Shown here piece after piece: positions 24,914 to 36,492 of a stretch of DNA of 64,000 bases. The position numbers were made by a program, and so were the translations under genes. The stretch is from Escherichia coli (GTDB taxonomy: Bacteria > Pseudomonadota > Gammaproteobacteria > Enterobacterales > Enterobacteriaceae). The stretch lies in the NCBI RefSeq assembly GCF_030013205.1, contig NZ_CP122648.1. One strand, written 5' to 3'. The notes beneath the pieces are model-generated. The model was not told the DNA's origin. It worked only from the letters and a program-made list of their open reading frames with translations, and made no database searches. How positions within the stretch are numbered: the first letter of the stretch is position 1; the number at the start of each line of letters is the position of its first letter.

Positions 24914-26266
24914 ATGAGTTCTTTAAGTCAGGCTGCGAGCAGTGTGGAAAAACGCACAAATGCTCGTTACTGGATAGTGGTGATGTTGTTTATCGTCACA
25001 TCCTTCAACTACGGCGACCGCGCTACGCTTTCTATTGCCGGTTCGGAAATGGCCAAAGATATCGGCCTTGATCCCGTGGGAATGGGCTATGTGTTCTCTG
25101 CTTTCTCATGGGCTTATGTTATCGGACAGATCCCTGGTGGTTGGTTGCTGGATCGTTTTGGTTCAAAACGCGTCTACTTCTGGTCGATCTTTATCTGGTC
25201 GATGTTTACCTTGCTGCAAGGCTTTGTCGATATTTTTAGTGGATTCGGCATTATCGTTGCCCTGTTTACGCTGCGCTTCCTGGTCGGGCTTGCTGAAGCG
25301 CCATCTTTCCCCGGCAACAGTCGCATTGTTGCGGCCTGGTTTCCGGCGCAGGAAAGGGGAACGGCGGTGTCGATTTTTAACTCCGCTCAATACTTCGCAA
25401 CGGTGATCTTCGCGCCGATTATGGGCTGGCTGACGCATGAAGTGGGCTGGTCACACGTCTTCTTCTTTATGGGCGGTCTGGGCATTGTCATCAGCTTTAT
25501 CTGGTTGAAAGTCATCCACGAGCCAAATCAACATCCGGGTGTAAATCAGAAAGAGCTGGAGTACATCGCCGCGGGTGGCGCGCTGATCAATATGGATCAG
25601 CAAAATACCAAAGTTAAAGTGCCGTTCAGCGTGAAGTGGGGGCAGATCAAACAGCTGCTCGGGTCACGGATGATGATCGGCGTTTATATCGGTCAGTACT
25701 GTATCAACGCCCTGACTTACTTTTTCATTACCTGGTTTCCGGTTTATCTGGTGCAGGCGCGTGGGATGTCGATTCTGAAAGCGGGCTTTGTGGCTTCCGT
25801 TCCGGCGGTTTGCGGTTTTATCGGCGGTGTGCTGGGTGGGATTATTTCCGACTGGCTGATGCGCCGCACGGGATCGCTGAACATTGCGCGTAAAACACCG
25901 ATCGTAATGGGCATGTTGCTGTCGATGGTGATGGTGTTCTGCAACTACGTCAACGTTGAGTGGATGATCATCGGCTTTATGGCGCTGGCCTTCTTCGGTA
26001 AGGGCATCGGGGCGCTGGGTTGGGCAGTAATGGCAGATACCGCGCCAAAAGAGATCAGCGGTCTTTCCGGTGGCCTGTTCAACATGTTCGGTAACATTTC
26101 TGGCATCGTCACGCCAATCGCAATTGGTTATATCGTTGGCACGACTGGCTCGTTTAATGGGGCGCTGATTTATGTTGGTGTTCATGCCTTAATCGCGGTA
26201 CTGAGCTACCTGGTGCTGGTGGGCGATATCAAGCGTATCGAGCTGAAACCTGTCGCGGGGCAATAA
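24914..26266 (+). CDS. gudP: glucarate/galactarate MFS transporter
   Basis: 450-aa polytopic MFS ORF. Confidence 0.9.
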
Positions 26267-26267
26267 G

Positions 26268-27608
26268 ATGACGACACAATCCAGTCCTGTTATTACTGAT
26301 ATGAAAGTCATTCCGGTCGCCGGGCACGATAGCATGTTGCTTAATATTGGTGGGGCGCATAACGCATATTTCACTCGCAATATTGTGGTACTCACCGATA
26401 ACGCCGGGCATACCGGCATTGGTGAAGCGCCAGGCGGAGAGGTGATTTATCAGACACTGGTCGATGCTATTCCGATGGTGTTGGGCCAGGAAGTTGCGCG
26501 CCTGAATAAAGTGGTTCAGCAGGTGCATAAAGGTAATCAGGCAGCCGATTTTGATACCTTCGGCAAAGGTGCCTGGACTTTTGAATTGCGCGTTAATGCC
26601 GTGGCGGCGCTGGAAGCCGCCTTGCTTGACCTGCTAGGTAAGGCGCTGAATGTTCCGGTCTGCGAACTGTTGGGGCCAGGCAAGCAACGCGAGGCTATTA
26701 CCGTCCTCGGTTATCTGTTTTATATCGGTGATCGGACCAAAACCGATCTTCCTTATCTGGAAAATACGCCGGGCAACCATGAGTGGTATCAGTTGCGCCA
26801 TCAGAAAGCGATGAACAGCGAAGCCGTTGTGCGTCTGGCGGAAGCCTCACAGGATCGCTATGGCTTTAAAGATTTCAAACTAAAGGGCGGCGTGTTACCT
26901 GGCGAGCAAGAAATCGACACTGTTCGTGCATTGAAGAAACGCTTCCCGGATGCGCGGATTACCGTTGATCCCAACGGTGCATGGCTGCTTGATGAAGCCA
27001 TTTCTCTGTGCAAAGGGCTGAATGATGTTCTTACCTATGCTGAAGATCCATGCGGAGCAGAACAGGGGTTCTCCGGACGTGAAGTGATGGCGGAGTTTCG
27101 ACGGGCGACCGGCTTGCCCGTCGCGACTAACATGATCGCCACCAACTGGCGCGAAATGGGCCATGCGGTGATGCTCAATGCGGTAGATATTCCACTTGCC
27201 GATCCGCATTTCTGGACGCTTTCCGGTGCAGTCCGCGTAGCGCAGCTTTGCGACGACTGGGGGCTGACCTGGGGCTGCCATTCCAATAATCACTTCGATA
27301 TCTCTCTGGCGATGTTTACCCATGTGGGTGCGGCGGCACCGGGTAATCCTACCGCTATCGATACCCACTGGATTTGGCAGGAGGGAGATTGTCGCCTGAC
27401 CAAAAATCCGCTGGAGATTAAAAACGGAAAAATTGCCGTTCCTGATGCGCCCGGTCTGGGCGTGGAACTGGACTGGGAGCAGGTACAAAAGGCGCATGAG
27501 GCCTATAAACGTCTGCCTGGCGGTGCGCGTAACGACGCGGGCCCGATGCAGTACCTGATCCCCGGCTGGACCTTTGACCGTAAACGTCCCGTTTTCGGCC
27601 GTCATTGA
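26268..27608 (+). CDS. gudX: glucarate dehydratase-related protein (enolase superfamily)
   Basis: 446-aa ORF, paralogous to the downstream gudD ORF. Confidence 0.9.
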
Positions 27609-27628: not shown

Positions 27629-28969
27629 ATGAGTTCTCAATTTACGACGCCTGTTGTTACTGAAATGCAGGTCATCCCGGTGGCGGGCCATGACAGTATG
27701 CTGATGAATCTGAGTGGTGCACACGCACCGTTCTTCACGCGTAATATTGTGATTATCAAAGATAATTCTGGTCACACCGGCGTAGGGGAAATTCCCGGCG
27801 GCGAGAAAATCCGTAAAACGCTGGAAGATGCGATTCCGCTGGTGGTGGGTAAAACGCTGGGTGAATACAAAAACGTTCTGACGCTGGTGCGTAATACATT
27901 TGCCGATCGTGATGCCGGCGGGCGCGGTTTGCAGACATTTGACCTGCGGACCACTATTCATGTGGTTACCGGGATAGAAGCGGCAATGCTGGATCTGCTG
28001 GGGCAGCATCTGGGGGTTAACGTGGCATCCCTGCTGGGCGATGGTCAACAGCGTAGCGAAGTCGAAATGCTCGGTTATCTGTTCTTCGTCGGTAATCGCA
28101 AAGCCACACCGCTGCCGTATCAAAGCCAGCCGGATGATAAATGTGACTGGTATCGCCTGCGTCACGAAGAAGCGATGACGCCGGATGCGGTGGTGCGCCT
28201 GGCGGAAGCGGCATATGAAAAATATGGCTTCAACGATTTCAAACTGAAGGGCGGTGTACTGGCCGGGGAAGAAGAAGCAGAATCTATTGTGGCACTGGCG
28301 CAACGCTTCCCACAGGCGCGTATTACCCTCGATCCTAACGGTGCCTGGTCGCTGAACGAAGCGATTAAAATTGGTAAATACCTGAAAGGTTCGCTGGCTT
28401 ATGCAGAAGATCCGTGTGGTGCGGAGCAAGGTTTCTCCGGGCGTGAAGTGATGGCAGAGTTCCGTCGCGCGACTGGCCTGCCGACCGCAACCAATATGAT
28501 CGCCACCGACTGGCGGCAGATGGGCCATACGCTCTCCCTGCAATCCGTTGATATCCCGCTGGCGGATCCGCATTTCTGGACGATGCAAGGTTCGGTACGT
28601 GTGGCGCAAATGTGCCATGAATTTGGCCTGACCTGGGGTTCACACTCTAACAACCACTTCGATATTTCCCTGGCGATGTTTACCCATGTAGCCGCTGCTG
28701 CACCGGGTAAAATTACTGCTATTGATACGCACTGGATCTGGCAGGAAGGCAATCAGCGTCTGACCAAAGAACCGTTTGAGATCAAAGGCGGGCTGGTTCA
28801 GGTGCCGCAAAAACCAGGATTGGGCGTAGAAATCGATATGGATCAGGTGATGAAAGCCCACGAGCTGTATCAGAAACACGGGCTTGGCGCGCGTGACGAT
28901 GCGATGGGAATGCAGTACCTGATTCCTGGCTGGACGTTTGATAACAAGCGCCCGTGCATGGTGCGTTAA
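27629..28969 (+). CDS. gudD: D-glucarate dehydratase
   Basis: Start set at [10 protein letters not shown] (ATG 27629) 8 codons inside ORF-track start; enolase superfamily. Confidence 0.9.
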
Positions 28970-28971
28970 GA

Positions 28972-29017
28972 CAGTAATCTCAAACCGGCTCTTTCAGGAG
29001 CCGGTTTGAGATTACTG
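28972..29017. terminator. long stem-loop after gudD between convergent gudD and barA
   Basis: cagtaatctcaaaccggctc tttcag gagccggtttgagattactg, near-perfect inverted repeat. Confidence 0.45.
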
Positions 29018-29029
29018 ACGAAGTGGCTT

Positions 29030-29145
29030 ACGGGGACGGTTTTCCCCTCGCCCTTTCAAGGAGAGGACCGGGGGGAGGGTAATCATTCGCACTTGCGTTG
29101 GCCTGTTCCCCTCACCCTAACCCTCTCCCCGGAGGGGCGAGGGGA
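29030..29145. repeat. GC-rich imperfect palindromic intergenic element (BoxC-like)
   Basis: cccctcgccc...ggagaggaccggggggagggt / ccctcaccctaaccctctccccggaggggcgagggg; the two arms are reverse-complementary; generates the spurious ORF 29006..29362. Confidence 0.35.
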
Positions 29146-29208
29146 CTGTCTGTGCTGTTCCCAGCATTGGCATTGGACGGAACCTATTTTGACTCGACAA
29201 GACGTCCG

Positions 29209-31965
29209 TTACCCGAGAATTTTGCTGGCTTCGCGCGCTACATTATCCATCTCGTCCAACAGTTCCAGCAGCTCCGGCTCCAAATCTTCTTCTTTAGTAC
29301 CGCTACGTAGCTGTTGTTCGATCAGTTGGCAGAGATTCTTCATACGCGGCACACCGCTATAGCCGCAACTGCCATGCAGTTTATGAATCAAATCAACCAG
29401 GCCTTCCGGGTTTTCTCCAACCAGCTGTTCCTCAACTTTGTTGCGAACTTCAGGCAGGAAATCGAGTAACATTTGCAGCATATCGCGCGCTAAATCGGTT
29501 TTTCCTGCTGCCTGGCGTAGTGCCAGTTGCCAGTCGAGGGTCGCATTCGGGTTCACCACAATTTCGTTGACTTCGGGCGTCACGACGCGAGAGGAAATAC
29601 CGCTGCCAGGCTTGTAGCGCAACAGCAAATTATGCAATCGTTCTTCTTCAATCGGTTTCGCCAGATAATCGCTCATCCCTGCGCCAAGCAGCTTCTCTTT
29701 TTGCCCGGCCATTGCATGCGCCGTTACCGCGATAACCGGCGTTTGTTGCTGATGGGGGAGCTGGTGGATGAGTTCGCAGGCCCGAATACCGTCCATGTCC
29801 GGCATTTGAATATCCATTAAGATCAAATCGAACGGCATCTGTTTCGCCCGTTCAACCGCCTGATGCCCGCTATCGCAAAGTTCCACATGTTGCACCATAT
29901 CTTCCAGCAATGCGCCGATAAGTTTCAGGTTAGCGGGGTTGTCATCAACCGCCATGACTGTCATTGCCAGCTTACTTTCATCGGTTACAGGCAAAAGCGT
30001 GTTTTGTTTGTGATGACAAAATTCCGTCAGGGCAGGTAACAGGCGCGTAGGTGTTAATGGTTTCAGCAGACACGCGCCGATACCATCTTGCTTAAGTTTT
30101 TCAGCATTGACTTGTGCATGGCAAGGAAGTGCCAGCATCAGAAAATCGGTCATCGATACCGCTTTCGCTAATCGCTCATGTTGCATTGTTAGCGGCTCGC
30201 GGAAGGTCACCGCAATGCCTAATAACATCATGTCGTAATGCGCGGGAGGTAGCGCGGAGAACGTTGGGCTATAAACCACTTCCAGCGGCGTTTCACTTAA
30301 AATATCCAGCGTGCATTGCGCTGCTGCGGAGTTTGGTTCGACATAGGCCAGGCGCTTGCCGGCTAGGCACTGGGTGGATGGCCCTTCGATAATAATGTTC
30401 GGGTTCAGATCGAGATTAATGTGGAACCAGAAAGTTGAACCGCGATTCGGCTGGCTATGGAACGAAATATCGCCGCCCATTTCATTAACCAGTTTTTGTG
30501 TAATCACCAGCCCCAGCCCGGTGCCACCATGACGGCGGGAAATACTGGCATCAGCCTGTCGGAAGGCCTGGAATAAGCGCGATTGATCGCGTTCAGGAAT
30601 ACCAATGCCGGTATCCCGAATCTGCACTTCAATCTGAACTTTGGTATTACTCAGCGCACGTTTTTCTACCAGAATATCAATGTTGCCATTCTCGGTGAAT
30701 TTAATTGCATTCCCTACCAGGTTAGTGATGATTTGCTGTAATCGCAGTGGGTCGCCAATTACGTTATCGGGCACGTCGCTCTTAATATTGAGCGTCAGTT
30801 CCAGCCCTTTATCGTGAGAAGAATGTGCCAGCAGGGTAACGACTTCATCCAGCGTGCTGCGTAGTGGGAATGGAATACTTTCCAGAATCAGCTTACCTGC
30901 TTCCAGTTTCGAGAAGTCGAGAACATCATTAATAATTGCCAGCAAATTATTTGCCGAACGTTCAATCGTATTCAGGTGATCGCGCTGCGTTGGTGTTAAT
31001 TCTGTTTTCAGCGTCAGGCGGGTAAAGCCAATAACACCATTCAGTGGTGTACGCAGCTCGTGTGACATATTTGCCAGAAACTCGGATTTAATACGCGCCG
31101 CTTCCTGGGCGCGCTTTTTCGCCAGATCCAACTCAACGTTCTGAATTTCCATCTGCTCCAGCGTTTCACGCAGATCGGACGTCGCCTGGGCGATATTGTG
31201 TTGCATCTCTTCGTGATAAGCCGCCAGCGACATTGCCATCGAGTTGATACCGTTTTTCAGCATATCCAGCTCGCCGAGCATAAATCCTTCCACACGGCTG
31301 TCGAGTTGCCCGCGACGGATGCGGTCGACGGTATTCACCATATTGCGAATCGGACCGGTTACATCGCGCATTAAGCGCCAGCCAAAAATAAGCGCAATAC
31401 CGATACAAAACAGCATCATCACGCTGGAAATAAAGATCTCTTTATATTGCTGCAAGCGAACCGATTTAAGATCCAGCTCAAGCGCAATATATCCCAACAT
31501 ATTTTGACTATTTTTGGCATCGCTACTGGGCGATTCGTCGGGGGAGTAACTCTCAGAAATAATCGGCGTGCGGAGGATCATAATATCGCCGTCACGAGTG
31601 ACAGTGAGCTGGCGAGGAAACGGCACGTTGCTGCCGAGCTGCATTGATGAGGGATCAAGATGAAAATTGGAGGTGACAAAGAGTCGGTTATTTTCATCAT
31701 AAACCGAAATCGCGCGAACAATATCGGAATGGCGACGATGCAGTACGCTTATTAACTGACCGATAGATTCGCGATTTTGCAGGCTCATGCCATATTCAGT
31801 AGAAACTGCAAGCGGCTCAATAATGCTGGCTCCGGCATCTTCCAGTTGACGCTGCAAGTCGTTATAGCGATGCACAACGAAAAAGATACTCAGCAATAAA
31901 CCAATAAGGACGGTCGGTGCCAGGATCAGAATCATCATGCGTGCGCGCAGGCTGTAGTTGGTCAT
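29209..31965 (-). CDS. barA: hybrid sensor histidine kinase BarA (BarA/UvrY two-component system)
   Basis: 918-aa ORF with HAMP, HisKA (SHELRTPLN), HATPase, receiver and HPt regions. Confidence 0.95.
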
Positions 31966-32021: not shown

Positions 32022-33323
32022 ATGGCGCAATTCTACTCTGCAAAACGACGCACGACGACGCGTCAGATCATAACTGTTTCAGTCAACGACCTCGACTCTT
32101 TTGGTCAGGGCGTGGCGCGACATAACGGCAAAGCGTTATTTATTCCTGGATTACTGCCACAGGAAAACGCGGAAGTTACTGTTACTGAAGATAAAAAACA
32201 GTACGCTCGCGCTAAAGTCGTGCGCCGGTTAAGCGATAACCCGGAACGCGAAACGCCACGCTGCCCTCATTTTGGCGTATGCGGCGGCTGTCAGCAACAA
32301 CACGCCAGCGTGGATTTACAGCAGCGAAGCAAAAGTGCGGCACTCGCCCGATTAATGAAACACGAAGTCTCTGAAGTGATCGCCGATGTTCCCTGGGGCT
32401 ATCGCCGTCGCGCGCGTTTAAGTTTGAACTACTTACCGAAAACACAGCAACTTCAGATGGGCTTTCGCAAAGCGGGCTCCAGTGACATTGTCGACGTTAA
32501 ACAATGCCCCATTTTAGTGCCCCAACTTGAAGCATTGCTGCCCAAAGTCAGGGCATGCCTGGGCAGCTTACAAGCTATGCGCCATCTTGGTCATGTTGAA
32601 CTGGTACAGGCAACCAGCGGCACGCTGATGATTTTGCGCCATACCGCACCGCTAAGTTCGGCAGATCGCGAAAAACTGGAACGCTTTTCGCATTCTGAAG
32701 GACTGGATCTGTATCTCGCCCCCGATAGTGAGATACTCGAAACCGTCTCTGGTGAGATGCCCTGGTATGACTCAAACGGGTTGCGCTTAACTTTTAGCCC
32801 GCGCGATTTTATTCAGGTCAATGCGGGTGTGAACCAAAAAATGGTAGCGCGTGCGTTGGAATGGCTGGATGTGCAACCTGAAGATCGCGTACTGGATCTG
32901 TTCTGCGGTATGGGCAACTTTACACTGCCATTGGCGACACAAGCTGCCAGTGTGGTCGGTGTAGAAGGTGTTCCGGCGCTGGTGGAAAAAGGCCAGCAGA
33001 ATGCGCGTCTTAATGGCTTACAGAATGTGACGTTTTATCACGAAAATCTTGAAGAAGATGTCACAAAGCAGCCGTGGGCGAAAAACGGCTTCGATAAAGT
33101 GTTGCTGGACCCGGCGCGAGCAGGTGCCGCAGGTGTTATGCAGCAAATTATAAAACTGGAACCTATTCGTATAGTTTATGTATCCTGTAACCCTGCAACG
33201 CTGGCTCGGGATAGCGAAGCGTTATTAAAAGCAGGATATACCATTGCGCGACTGGCGATGCTGGATATGTTCCCACACACGGGACATCTGGAATCGATGG
33301 TACTTTTCTCGCGCGTTAAATAG
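32022..33323 (+). CDS. rlmD: 23S rRNA m5U1939 methyltransferase (RumA)
   Basis: 433-aa ORF with TRAM domain, 4-Cys cluster and SAM-MTase fold. Confidence 0.9.
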
Positions 33324-33370: not shown

Positions 33371-35605
33371 ATGGTTGCGGTAAGAAGTGCACATATCAAT
33401 AAGGCTGGTGAATTTGATCCGGAAAAATGGATCGCAAGTCTGGGTATTACCAGCCAGAAGTCGTGTGAGTGCTTAGCCGAAACCTGGGCGTATTGTCTGC
33501 AACAGACGCAGGGGCATCCGGATGCCAGTCTGTTATTGTGGCGTGGTGTTGAGATGGTGGAGATCCTCTCGACATTAAGTATGGACATTGACACGCTGCG
33601 GGCGGCGCTGCTGTTCCCTCTGGCGGATGCCAACGTAGTCAGCGAAGATGTGCTGCGTGAGAGCGTCGGTAAGTCGGTCGTTAACCTTATTCACGGCGTG
33701 CGTGATATGGCGGCGATCCGCCAGCTGAAAGCGACGCATACCGATTCTGTTTCCTCCGAGCAGGTCGATAACGTTCGCCGGATGTTATTGGCGATGGTCG
33801 ATGATTTTCGCTGCGTGGTCATCAAACTGGCAGAGCGTATTGCTCATCTGCGCGAAGTAAAAGACGCGCCGGAAGATGAACGCGTACTGGCGGCAAAAGA
33901 GTGCACCAATATCTACGCGCCGTTGGCGAACCGTCTTGGGATTGGACAACTGAAATGGGAGCTGGAAGATTACTGCTTCCGTTATCTCCACCCGACCGAA
34001 TACAAACGCATCGCAAAACTGCTGCATGAACGCCGTCTCGACCGCGAACACTATATCGAAGAGTTTGTCGGCCATCTGCGCGCTGAGATGAAAGCTGAAG
34101 GCGTTAAAGCTGAAGTGTATGGTCGACCGAAACACATCTACAGCATCTGGCGCAAAATGCAGAAAAAGAACCTCGCCTTCGATGAGCTGTTTGATGTGCG
34201 TGCGGTACGTATTGTCGCCGAGCGTTTACAGGATTGTTATGCCGCACTGGGGATAGTGCACACTCACTATCGCCACCTGCCGGATGAGTTTGACGATTAC
34301 GTCGCTAACCCGAAACCAAACGGTTATCAGTCTATTCATACCGTGGTTCTGGGACCAGGTGGCAAAACCGTTGAGATCCAAATCCGCACTAAACAGATGC
34401 ATGAAGATGCAGAGTTGGGTGTTGCTGCGCACTGGAAATATAAAGAGGGCGCGGCAGCTGGCGGCGCACGTTCGGGACATGAAGACCGGATTGCCTGGCT
34501 GCGTAAACTGATTGCGTGGCAGGAAGAGATGGCTGATTCCGGCGAAATGCTCGACGAAGTACGTAGCCAGGTCTTTGACGACCGGGTGTACGTCTTTACG
34601 CCGAAAGGTGATGTCGTTGATTTGCCTGCGGGATCAACACCGCTGGACTTCGCTTACCACATCCACAGTGATGTCGGACACCGCTGCATCGGGGCAAAAA
34701 TAGGCGGGCGCATTGTGCCGTTCACCTACCAGCTGCAGATGGGCGACCAGATTGAAATTATTACCCAGAAACAGCCGAACCCCAGCCGTGACTGGTTAAA
34801 CCCAAACCTCGGTTACGTCACAACCAGCCGTGGGCGTTCGAAAATTCACGCCTGGTTCCGTAAACAGGACCGTGACAAAAACATTCTGGCTGGGCGGCAA
34901 ATCCTTGACGACGAGCTGGAACATCTGGGGATCAGCCTGAAAGAAGCAGAAAAACATCTGCTGCCGCGTTACAACTTCAATGATGTCGACGAGTTGCTGG
35001 CGGCAATTGGTGGCGGGGATATCCGTCTCAATCAGATGGTGAACTTCCTGCAATCGCAATTTAATAAGCCGAGTGCCGAAGAGCAGGATGCCGCCGCACT
35101 GAAGCAACTTCAGCAAAAAAGCTATACGCCGCAAAACCGCAGTAAAGATAACGGTCGTGTGGTGGTTGAAGGTGTCGGTAACCTGATGCACCACATCGCG
35201 CGCTGCTGCCAGCCGATTCCTGGAGATGAGATTGTCGGCTTCATTACCCAGGGACGCGGTATTTCAGTACACCGCGCCGATTGCGAACAACTGGCGGAAC
35301 TGCGCTCCCATGCGCCAGAACGTATTGTTGATGCGGTATGGGGCGAGAGCTACTCCGCCGGATATTCGCTGGTGGTCCGCGTGGTGGCTAATGATCGTAG
35401 TGGGTTGTTACGTGATATCACGACCATTCTCGCCAACGAGAAGGTGAACGTACTTGGCGTTGCCAGCCGTAGCGACACCAAACAGCAGCTGGCGACCATC
35501 GACATGACCATTGAGATTTACAACCTGCAAGTGCTGGGCCGCGTGCTGGGTAAACTCAACCAGGTGCCGGATGTTATCGACGCGCGTCGGTTGCACGGGA
35601 GTTAG
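33371..35605 (+). CDS. relA: GTP pyrophosphokinase, (p)ppGpp synthetase I
   Basis: 744-aa RelA/SpoT-family ORF. Confidence 0.95.
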   Translation: MVAVRSAHINKAGEFDPEKWIASLGITSQKSCECLAETWAYCLQQTQGHPDASLLLWRGVEMVEILSTLSMDIDTLRAALLFPLADANVVSEDVLRESVGKSVVNLIHGVRDMAAIRQLKATHTDSVSSEQVDNVRRMLLAMVDDFRCVVIKLAERIAHLREVKDAPEDERVLAAKECTNIYAPLANRLGIGQLKWELEDYCFRYLHPTEYKRIAKLLHERRLDREHYIEEFVGHLRAEMKAEGVKAEVYGRPKHIYSIWRKMQKKNLAFDELFDVRAVRIVAERLQDCYAALGIVHTHYRHLPDEFDDYVANPKPNGYQSIHTVVLGPGGKTVEIQIRTKQMHEDAELGVAAHWKYKEGAAAGGARSGHEDRIAWLRKLIAWQEEMADSGEMLDEVRSQVFDDRVYVFTPKGDVVDLPAGSTPLDFAYHIHSDVGHRCIGAKIGGRIVPFTYQLQMGDQIEIITQKQPNPSRDWLNPNLGYVTTSRGRSKIHAWFRKQDRDKNILAGRQILDDELEHLGISLKEAEKHLLPRYNFNDVDELLAAIGGGDIRLNQMVNFLQSQFNKPSAEEQDAAALKQLQQKSYTPQNRSKDNGRVVVEGVGNLMHHIARCCQPIPGDEIVGFITQGRGISVHRADCEQLAELRSHAPERIVDAVWGESYSAGYSLVVRVVANDRSGLLRDITTILANEKVNVLGVASRSDTKQQLATIDMTIEIYNLQVLGRVLGKLNQVPDVIDARRLHGS

Positions 35606-35608
35606 TCT

Positions 35609-35650
35609 TACATAGCTGGATATGGCGTCAGCCGTATCCAGCGATATCTT
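35609..35650 (+). terminator. stem-loop after relA
   Basis: gctggatatggc gtca gccgtatccagc then T-containing tail; occupies the short relA-mazG spacer. Confidence 0.4.
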
Positions 35651-35700
35651 TTACTCGAAGGTATTACACCTGACAGACCCGCAATTTTCAGGACATTCTA

Positions 35701-36492
35701 ATGAATCAAATCGACCGTTTGCTCACTATTATGCAGCGCCTGCGCGATCCGGAAAACGGCTGCCCGTGGGATAAAGAGCAGACATTTGCCACCATTGCGC
35801 CTTACACCCTTGAAGAAACCTACGAGGTGCTGGACGCCATCGCCCGTGAAGATTTTGACGATCTTCGCGGTGAACTGGGCGATCTGCTGTTCCAGGTGGT
35901 GTTTTACGCACAAATGGCCCAGGAAGAAGGGCGCTTTGACTTTAATGATATTTGCGCCGCGATCAGCGATAAATTAGAACGTCGCCATCCGCATGTTTTT
36001 GCTGACAGTTCTGCCGAAAACAGTAGTGAAGTGCTTGCCCGTTGGGAGCAAATCAAAACCGAAGAGCGCGCGCAGAAAGCGCAGCATTCGGCGCTGGACG
36101 ATATTCCTCGTAGTTTACCGGCTTTAATGCGTGCGCAAAAAATCCAGAAACGTTGCGCCAACGTTGGTTTTGACTGGACGACGCTTGGTCCGGTAGTCGA
36201 TAAAGTCTACGAAGAGATCGACGAGGTGATGTACGAGGCACGGCAGGCTGTTATCGACCAGGCTAAACTGGAGGAGGAAATGGGCGACCTGCTGTTTGCC
36301 ACGGTCAATCTGGCTCGTCATTTAGGGACAAAAGCGGAAATCGCATTGCAAAAAGCGAACGAAAAATTCGAGCGTCGTTTTCGCGAAGTGGAGCGTATTG
36401 TTGCCGCGCGTGGACTGGAAATGACAGGTGTTGACCTCGAAACAATGGAAGAAGTCTGGCAACAGGTAAAACGGCAGGAAATTGATCTCTAA
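35701..36492 (+). CDS. mazG: nucleoside triphosphate pyrophosphohydrolase MazG
   Basis: 263-aa ORF with tandem MazG motifs (EExYE...). Confidence 0.9.
   Translation: MNQIDRLLTIMQRLRDPENGCPWDKEQTFATIAPYTLEETYEVLDAIAREDFDDLRGELGDLLFQVVFYAQMAQEEGRFDFNDICAAISDKLERRHPHVFADSSAENSSEVLARWEQIKTEERAQKAQHSALDDIPRSLPALMRAQKIQKRCANVGFDWTTLGPVVDKVYEEIDEVMYEARQAVIDQAKLEEEMGDLLFATVNLARHLGTKAEIALQKANEKFERRFREVERIVAARGLEMTGVDLETMEEVWQQVKRQEIDL

Follow-up and report, generated by a model that had tools for sequence, protein, structure and literature searches.

A BoxC inverted pair beside a single-copy hairpin in the gudD-barA spacer of Escherichia coli

Strand switching at quasipalindromes is a known mutational mechanism, reportedly set out in the Ripley model and followed in E. 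coli by the Lovett laboratory with lacZ quasipalindrome reporters. For REPs, effects on mRNA stability are documented and a family of mobilising enzymes, RAYT, has been described; we know of neither a documented role in mRNA stability nor a mobilising enzyme for BoxC, a repeat also published as PIT, TMECO and HPG1/HPG2. BoxC, PIT elements and 'TMECO' have been treated as one motif, 23 copies of which are tabulated for K-12 (Holder et al. 2015, PMC4666352). At five K-12 loci two units stand as an inverted repeat, and an A unit is always paired with a B unit (Holder et al., PMC4666352). The BoxC literature also includes Kaplan et al. 2016 (PMC5100583) and Hoyne/Maher 2000, and among the earlier work cited in PMC2267715 and PMC4666352 are Bergler 1992 and papers by Bachellier from the 1990s. 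Formation of an intrastrand triplex or a G-quadruplex comes from published in-vitro work.

The window analysed here is the whole of a 64,000-nt stretch of E. coli DNA (contig NZ_CP122648.1), read on one strand. Within it, the convergent genes gudD and barA are separated by an intergenic spacer of 239 nt that is 100% identical to the corresponding spacer of the swine isolate K_EC180. The part of the spacer from 29156 to 29191 is confined to the allele described below, while 29192-29208 is common to all alleles. The features, with the evidence for their limits, are these:

26268-27608, plus strand: gudX
27629-28969, plus strand: gudD, glucarate dehydratase, last of gudP-gudX-gudD (ORF listing; K_EC180 RefSeq annotation)
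28972-29017: hairpin with a perfect stem of 20 bp and a loop of 6 nt, derived by extension from the conserved, putative gudD/barA terminator hairpin
28975, 28978, 28980 and 28981: four lineage-specific substitutions, from parent GAAAACCA to GTAATCTC (parent-allele alignment)
29006-29362, plus strand: spurious 118-aa ORF with a TTG start, antisense into barA from 29209 (ORF listing)
29033-29155: BoxC inverted pair in complete form, made up of a type B unit, a spacer and a type A unit, the repeated unit found at other loci too (blastn match limits and K-12 pair alignment)
29045-29080, plus strand: BoxC/TMECO type B unit, degenerate, CCCTCGCCCTTTCAAGGAGAGGACCGGGGGGAGGGT, 33/36 identical to K-12 TMECO no. 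10
29081-29107: 27-nt inter-unit spacer, TAAT.ATTCGCAC...GGCCTGTT, conserved among pairs
29108-29143, minus strand: BoxC/TMECO type A unit, CCCTCGCCCCTCCGGGGAGAGGGTTAGGGTGAGGGG, identical to K-12 TMECO no. 23
29156-29208: remainder of the spacer up to the barA stop codon (allele comparison)
29209-31965, minus strand: barA, sensor histidine kinase, convergent with gudD (ORF listing; K_EC180 annotation)
32022-33323, plus strand: rlmD (ORF listing; K_EC180 annotation)

Farther along the window, relA (33371-35605) is followed directly by mazG (35701-36492), with an intervening stretch of 35606-35700. The mazE-mazF toxin-antitoxin pair, which lies between relA and mazG in K-12, is missing both here and in strain ST2747.

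Our overall account, to which we would give a probability of about 80%, is that a BoxC pair and an independent terminator hairpin of the locus lie side by side in the spacer. An earlier note, made from the sequence alone, had taken 28972-29150 for one compound structure. Its coordinates were essentially right, except that the GC-rich element reaches about 5 nt further, to 29155; the idea of a single structure did not survive, as the hairpin is single-copy in every genome, specific to the locus, and occurs with either kind of spacer, BoxC or REP. The hairpin and the GC-rich element are two unrelated features, adjacent by happenstance.

The GC-rich element (29033-29155) is 123 nt long, with 64% GC as against 51% in the window. 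It is indeed an imperfect palindrome, as that note had it: arms of 40 nt each (29043-29082 and 29106-29145, with 23 nt between them) are 75% complementary, and the 20-mers quoted from the two halves are present, the one matching the reverse complement of the other at 15/20 positions. The 123 nt fold as a single long hairpin on either strand (-70.9 and -63.6 kcal/mol, z ~ -5; for the -70.9 kcal/mol fold, comparison with shuffles gives z = -5.0). Comparison with the 22 E. coli BoxC members in the supplement of PMC2267715 bore out the guess of a BoxC-type repeat, the right half being 49/51 identical to member eco:22 and the left half, reverse-complemented, 44/49 identical to member eco:10. The copy count by blastn that the note had proposed as a check found the element in many copies per genome, and it is thus not the single-copy, unconserved sequence that would have spoken against BoxC.

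The BoxC/PIT/TMECO consensus tested was CCCTCNCCC-N3-6-GGGNGAGGG-N3-GGGNGAGGG (Holder et al. 2015, PMC4666352). On the minus strand, the right unit fits it without deviation (29109-29143), where chance would give 0 matches, and is the only match in the 64-kb window; no further BoxC copies were found there. The left unit (29045-29080) does not match the strict consensus, because two of its G-tracts are interrupted, GGAGAGGA and GGGGGGAGGG replacing required G-tract blocks. In the sister allele of CUVET16-394, the B unit is intact (allele alignment), and the left unit is therefore a decayed member of BoxC. The loops are CCG in the B unit (plus strand) and TTA in the A unit (minus strand). By a motif check, the minus strand of the A unit carries the HPG1 G-quadruplex motif (29108-29130), and the B unit has none. 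The sole other canonical G-quadruplex motif in the 64-kb window, GGGCATCGGGGCGCTGGGTTGGG at 26002-26024 (plus strand) in the gudP/gudX region, is unrelated to BoxC.

Over its full length, spacer included, the pair is homologous with the K-12 pairs at ygfF-gcvP, hrpB-mrcB, fepB-entC and alx-sstT (mean column identity 83%), and the 27-nt spacer is kept in the alignment of these four K-12 pairs. Judged by its sequence, then, the GC-rich element is an inverted BoxC pair in the known paired form, type B(+)/A(-). It is ordinary repeat DNA, of a kind and a paired architecture already published; what is new here is only the allele frequencies at gudD-barA and the apparent templated perfecting of the adjacent hairpin. 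The part of the Holder et al. supplement that was available holds no gudD/barA entry. An Rfam scan of 28800-29400 at E <= 10 returned no family for the element; its candidates (generic miRNA hairpins and a weak match to a Ruegeria sRNA) all lay far below gathering scores.

Matches to the BoxC element were found by blastn in 5407 of 5426 complete E. coli genomes, with 1-25 places in each (median 14); the source strain has 16. Only 25 of the 66,688 places are plasmid-borne, so the family is essentially chromosomal, and it is dispersed. Strict motifs also turned up in incidental loci of Enterobacter, Lelliottia and Pseudocitrobacter.

A BoxC pair between gudD and barA is present in 188 of the 5426 genomes (3.5%; 174 with a shorter query). 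The K-12 spacer is of nearly equal length, but its central ~170 nt are unrelated to those of the window, and the other common-allele genomes that were fetched share the K-12-type spacer. The palindromic unit within it recurs at no fewer than 40 places per genome and is a REP-type repeat. The comparison with outgroups drew on three within Escherichia, namely E. whittamii and two divergent representatives of 'E. coli' species, and did not extend to E. albertii, E. fergusonii or Salmonella; the REP-type spacer occurs in all three. Since the Escherichia outgroups carry the REP-type spacer, the BoxC allele is the newer state, a minority form in which the BoxC pair has taken the place of a REP-bearing segment. 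In other genera, among the matches listed, what comes after gudD is another hairpin and, in place of barA, a gene that begins MKIVIAPDSYKESLSA (presumably the glycerate kinase gene garK), and for this reason these loci are uninformative on the ancestral state.

In SCPM-O-B-8794, E69 and E. whittamii, the REP-bearing segment lies between two copies of a terminator-like hairpin. The two copies form an identical 23-nt direct repeat, AACGGCTCCTTACAGAGCCGTTT, in E. coli SCPM-O-B-8794, and in the outgroups the left copy has retained the A-tract and the right copy a T8 tract. It looks as if, in these outgroups, one bidirectional terminator was duplicated around an inserted REP segment. The region downstream of gcvP is a second locus where BoxC-pair and REP alleles alternate. 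In K-12, the ygfF-gcvP pair lies at 1478-1603 of the fetched locus, an arrangement found in ~56% of genomes; O157:H7 and strain 1435 lack both ygfF and the BoxC pair after gcvP and have a REP-like palindrome in their place.

gudD ends at 28969, and the hairpin beside the element starts 3 nt beyond its stop codon. Its 20-nt arms (28972-28991 and 28998-29017) are 100% complementary, as the note had reported. The RNA fold has an energy of -37.4 kcal/mol, against -13.5 +/- 2.9 for shuffled sequences (z = -8.4; 0/200 shuffles as good), and the DNA fold one of -24.5 kcal/mol (z = -11). The core stem (28982-28991 and 28998-29007) is more widely shared than the rest: the inner 10-11 bp (AAACCGGCTC/GAGCCGGTTT) are kept across ten distinct Escherichia alleles, with variation amounting to one compensatory C-G to U-A and three changes to G-U, while the outer ten pairs are complete only in the window among the ten alleles compared. 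The covariation of the core is weak support, since the sequences are few (10) and shuffle controls were not exceeded.

On the barA strand of K-12, TGGTTTTCTG comes after the hairpin, which passes a scan for intrinsic terminators there. Given the consensus scan and the conservation, the common-allele hairpin may well terminate transcription of barA; it is read as a barA terminator because a T-tract follows it on the barA strand. On the gudD strand, neither allele has a canonical T-tract. The same kind of scan over 28800-29400 of the window gave 0 terminator-like sites on either strand.

How the window's stem became perfect is suggested by its closest alleles. The spacers of ST2747, ETEC1738 and AST215 equal that of the window except for the four substitutions at 28975, 28978, 28980 and 28981 and two scattered changes. 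The four substitutions complement 29014, 29011, 29009 and 29008, respectively, and they fall at exactly the four formerly unpaired positions of the outer stem. The predicted stability of the stem goes from -22.2 kcal/mol in the parent form to -37.4 kcal/mol in that of the window, and the T-tract on the barA strand, UUUUGGUUUUCUG, is converted to UUUGAGAUUACUG. The perfect stem occurs in 17 of the 5426 genomes, all from Sus scrofa, with O139:H1 and ETEC isolates among them; arms as long as 20 bp are recent and peculiar to these 17 genomes and do not characterise the locus.

The simplest reading of this pattern of mutations is that one templated strand switch at a quasipalindrome perfected the stem. 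In the swine-associated lineage, a single templated event may have copied the right arm onto the left by an intramolecular strand switch, and this event would have both given the perfect 20-bp stem and destroyed the T-tract. Background divergence from ST2747, the nearest available parent allele, is 0.94% over 19.6 kb, and other clusters of SNPs are present elsewhere in the region compared with that strain. Conversion from another locus, as a source for the new left arm, is unlikely because the hairpin region is single-copy: no second copy that might have donated the new arm (CAGTAATCTCAAACCGG) was found. Perhaps replication stalling at the BoxC pair, which lies 16 nt from the hairpin, triggered the template switch, an idea we offer with considerable doubt. 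If it is true, the locus would be a natural case of non-B-DNA repeats driving templated mutagenesis of adjacent regulatory hairpins.

The BoxC allele itself is prone to change. In MS 69-1, a 70-nt deletion between CCCTC repeats has left a single hybrid unit, and in AST215, a 6-nt duplication of ACCCTA inside the A unit has added an extra C-tract. In the lineage of the window, the already decayed B unit has undergone a further T-to-G change (allele alignment). Raised variability at BoxC loci has been published, and the deletion, duplication and decay seen here agree with it. The visible effect of the BoxC pair is local sequence instability, through deletion, duplication and point decay of units.

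What else the pair might do can be judged from its settings and from published tests. The pair is non-coding, chromosomal, dispersed, structure-prone repeat DNA, whose single strands can fold into a long hairpin, and most likely it has no locus-specific function here. The pairs examined sit between co-directional, divergent and convergent genes, which argues against a fixed transcriptional role. The scan of the region found no promoter-like site at the element. Published tests, made on BoxC elements other than pairs in the context of a 3' UTR, found no promoter or terminator activity, and published work found no stable triplex in vivo. These results together with the varied orientations favor a structure-prone repeat without function. 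But 'no function' leaves unexplained why BoxC units differ unusually little from copy to copy and from genus to genus, a uniformity that may point to some constraint or to a process of homogenisation. The main rival holds that selection has kept the BoxC pair, either alone or together with the extended hairpin, as an RNA module where the 3' UTRs of gudD and barA overlap. Such a module would block 3'-5' exonucleases or insulate transcription, as the REP would in the other allele. REPs stabilise upstream mRNA, as is well established, and the BoxC pair stands where the majority allele has its REP segment; downstream of gcvP, too, some genomes have a BoxC pair and others a REP-like palindrome. Both strands give very stable folds (z about -5 to -8), and with the T-tract of barA lost in this lineage, another structure at the 3' end may matter. 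The negative published tests count against a stabiliser or insulator, however, as does the occurrence of pairs in every gene orientation, including a position between divergent promoters at fepB-entC. Moreover, only 3.5% of genomes have the allele with the pair, and decay of the B unit is under way in this lineage. We consider such a module unlikely, if still worth keeping in mind.

Might the pair of ~123 bp have been inserted here as a miniature inverted-repeat transposable element? Its ends resemble terminal inverted repeats (..TTTTCCCCTCGCCC / GGGCGAGGGGAC..), the spacer inside it is conserved, its copies are dispersed, and at two loci it is present in some genomes and absent from others. 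Against this, neither a clean empty site nor a target-site duplication was found at gudD-barA or ygfF-gcvP, since the alternative alleles at both places are replacements, holding other sequence in place of an empty site; a transposon-like origin is for that reason unsupported. There are also almost no plasmid copies, published work describes stable orthologous loci without mobile-element association, and insertion of this kind is quite improbable. To our knowledge, BoxC has no cognate transposase. Still harder to credit is a product encoded by the region, whether the 118-aa ORF or a small RNA gene. The ORF exists and the region folds strongly, but the ORF starts with a TTG within the hairpin, and of its 357 nt, 154 run antisense to barA. 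The ORF is impossible in the 96% of genomes with the other allele. No Pfam family rises above cut-off, and a CDS is annotated in none of the fetched RefSeq records (seven of them with the BoxC-pair allele); nor was there a promoter-like site or an Rfam family. A YmjE-like Pfam match to residues 40-68 of the translation of 29006-29359 (E = 0.032, 14.6 bits against a cut-off of 27 bits) is compositional and is attributed to chance, as ymjE of K-12 itself is without BoxC sequence. The ORF, created by the repeat together with the antisense strand of barA, is spurious, just as the earlier note had said.

A BoxC pair without locus-specific function, beside an independent hairpin, has little import for biology at large. 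Annotators would do well to mark the region as a BoxC pair and to leave the 118-aa ORF uncalled; BoxC has been repeatedly rediscovered under new names because neither Rfam nor RefSeq has a feature for it. The gudD-barA spacer plainly illustrates how an intergenic region can be switched: ~96% of genomes have a REP allele and 3.5% a BoxC-pair allele. That BoxC pairs and REPs are interchangeable 3'-end cassettes is conceivable but doubtful. The perfecting of a hairpin by four bases would make a tidy natural example of quasipalindrome template switching. And the apparent terminator of barA has lost its T-tract in a porcine pathogenic lineage, where altered read-through could in principle matter, because BarA controls the Csr system.

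Set beside known systems, the element most resembles BoxC/PIT/TMECO. It has the same sequence (by match to the consensus and identity to K-12 copies), the same A and B units and the same inverted A+B pairing; the same intergenic, chromosomal placing, with ~14-25 detectable copies per genome; and the same G-quadruplex/triplex motif in the A unit and local instability. It differs from BoxC of K-12 in that the gudD-barA spacer is without BoxC there and that the B unit of the window falls below consensus. REP/BIME elements are likewise short, structured and intergenic, are found at the 3' ends of genes, and are represented at this very spot by the REP-type unit of the majority allele. However, REPs are ~35-40 nt in length and present in hundreds of copies, and the window's element contains no REP palindromic unit sequence and has no sequence alignable with the REP-type segment of the K-12 allele. 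The conserved central core of ERIC (taken here to be the ERIC2 primer sequence) had no match with <= 3 mismatches in the whole window.

The hairpin has its own parallels. Like bidirectional terminators between convergent genes, it has a GC-rich stem right after the stop codons and an A-rich tract to one side; unlike them, the form in the window has lost the T-tract and fails the scan that the K-12 allele passes. With quasipalindrome mutation it shares a simultaneous cluster of changes that turns an imperfect inverted repeat into a perfect one, each change templated, as it would seem, by the opposite arm. The event here would be a natural one, fixed in a terminator hairpin and read from a comparison of alleles, not from experiment.
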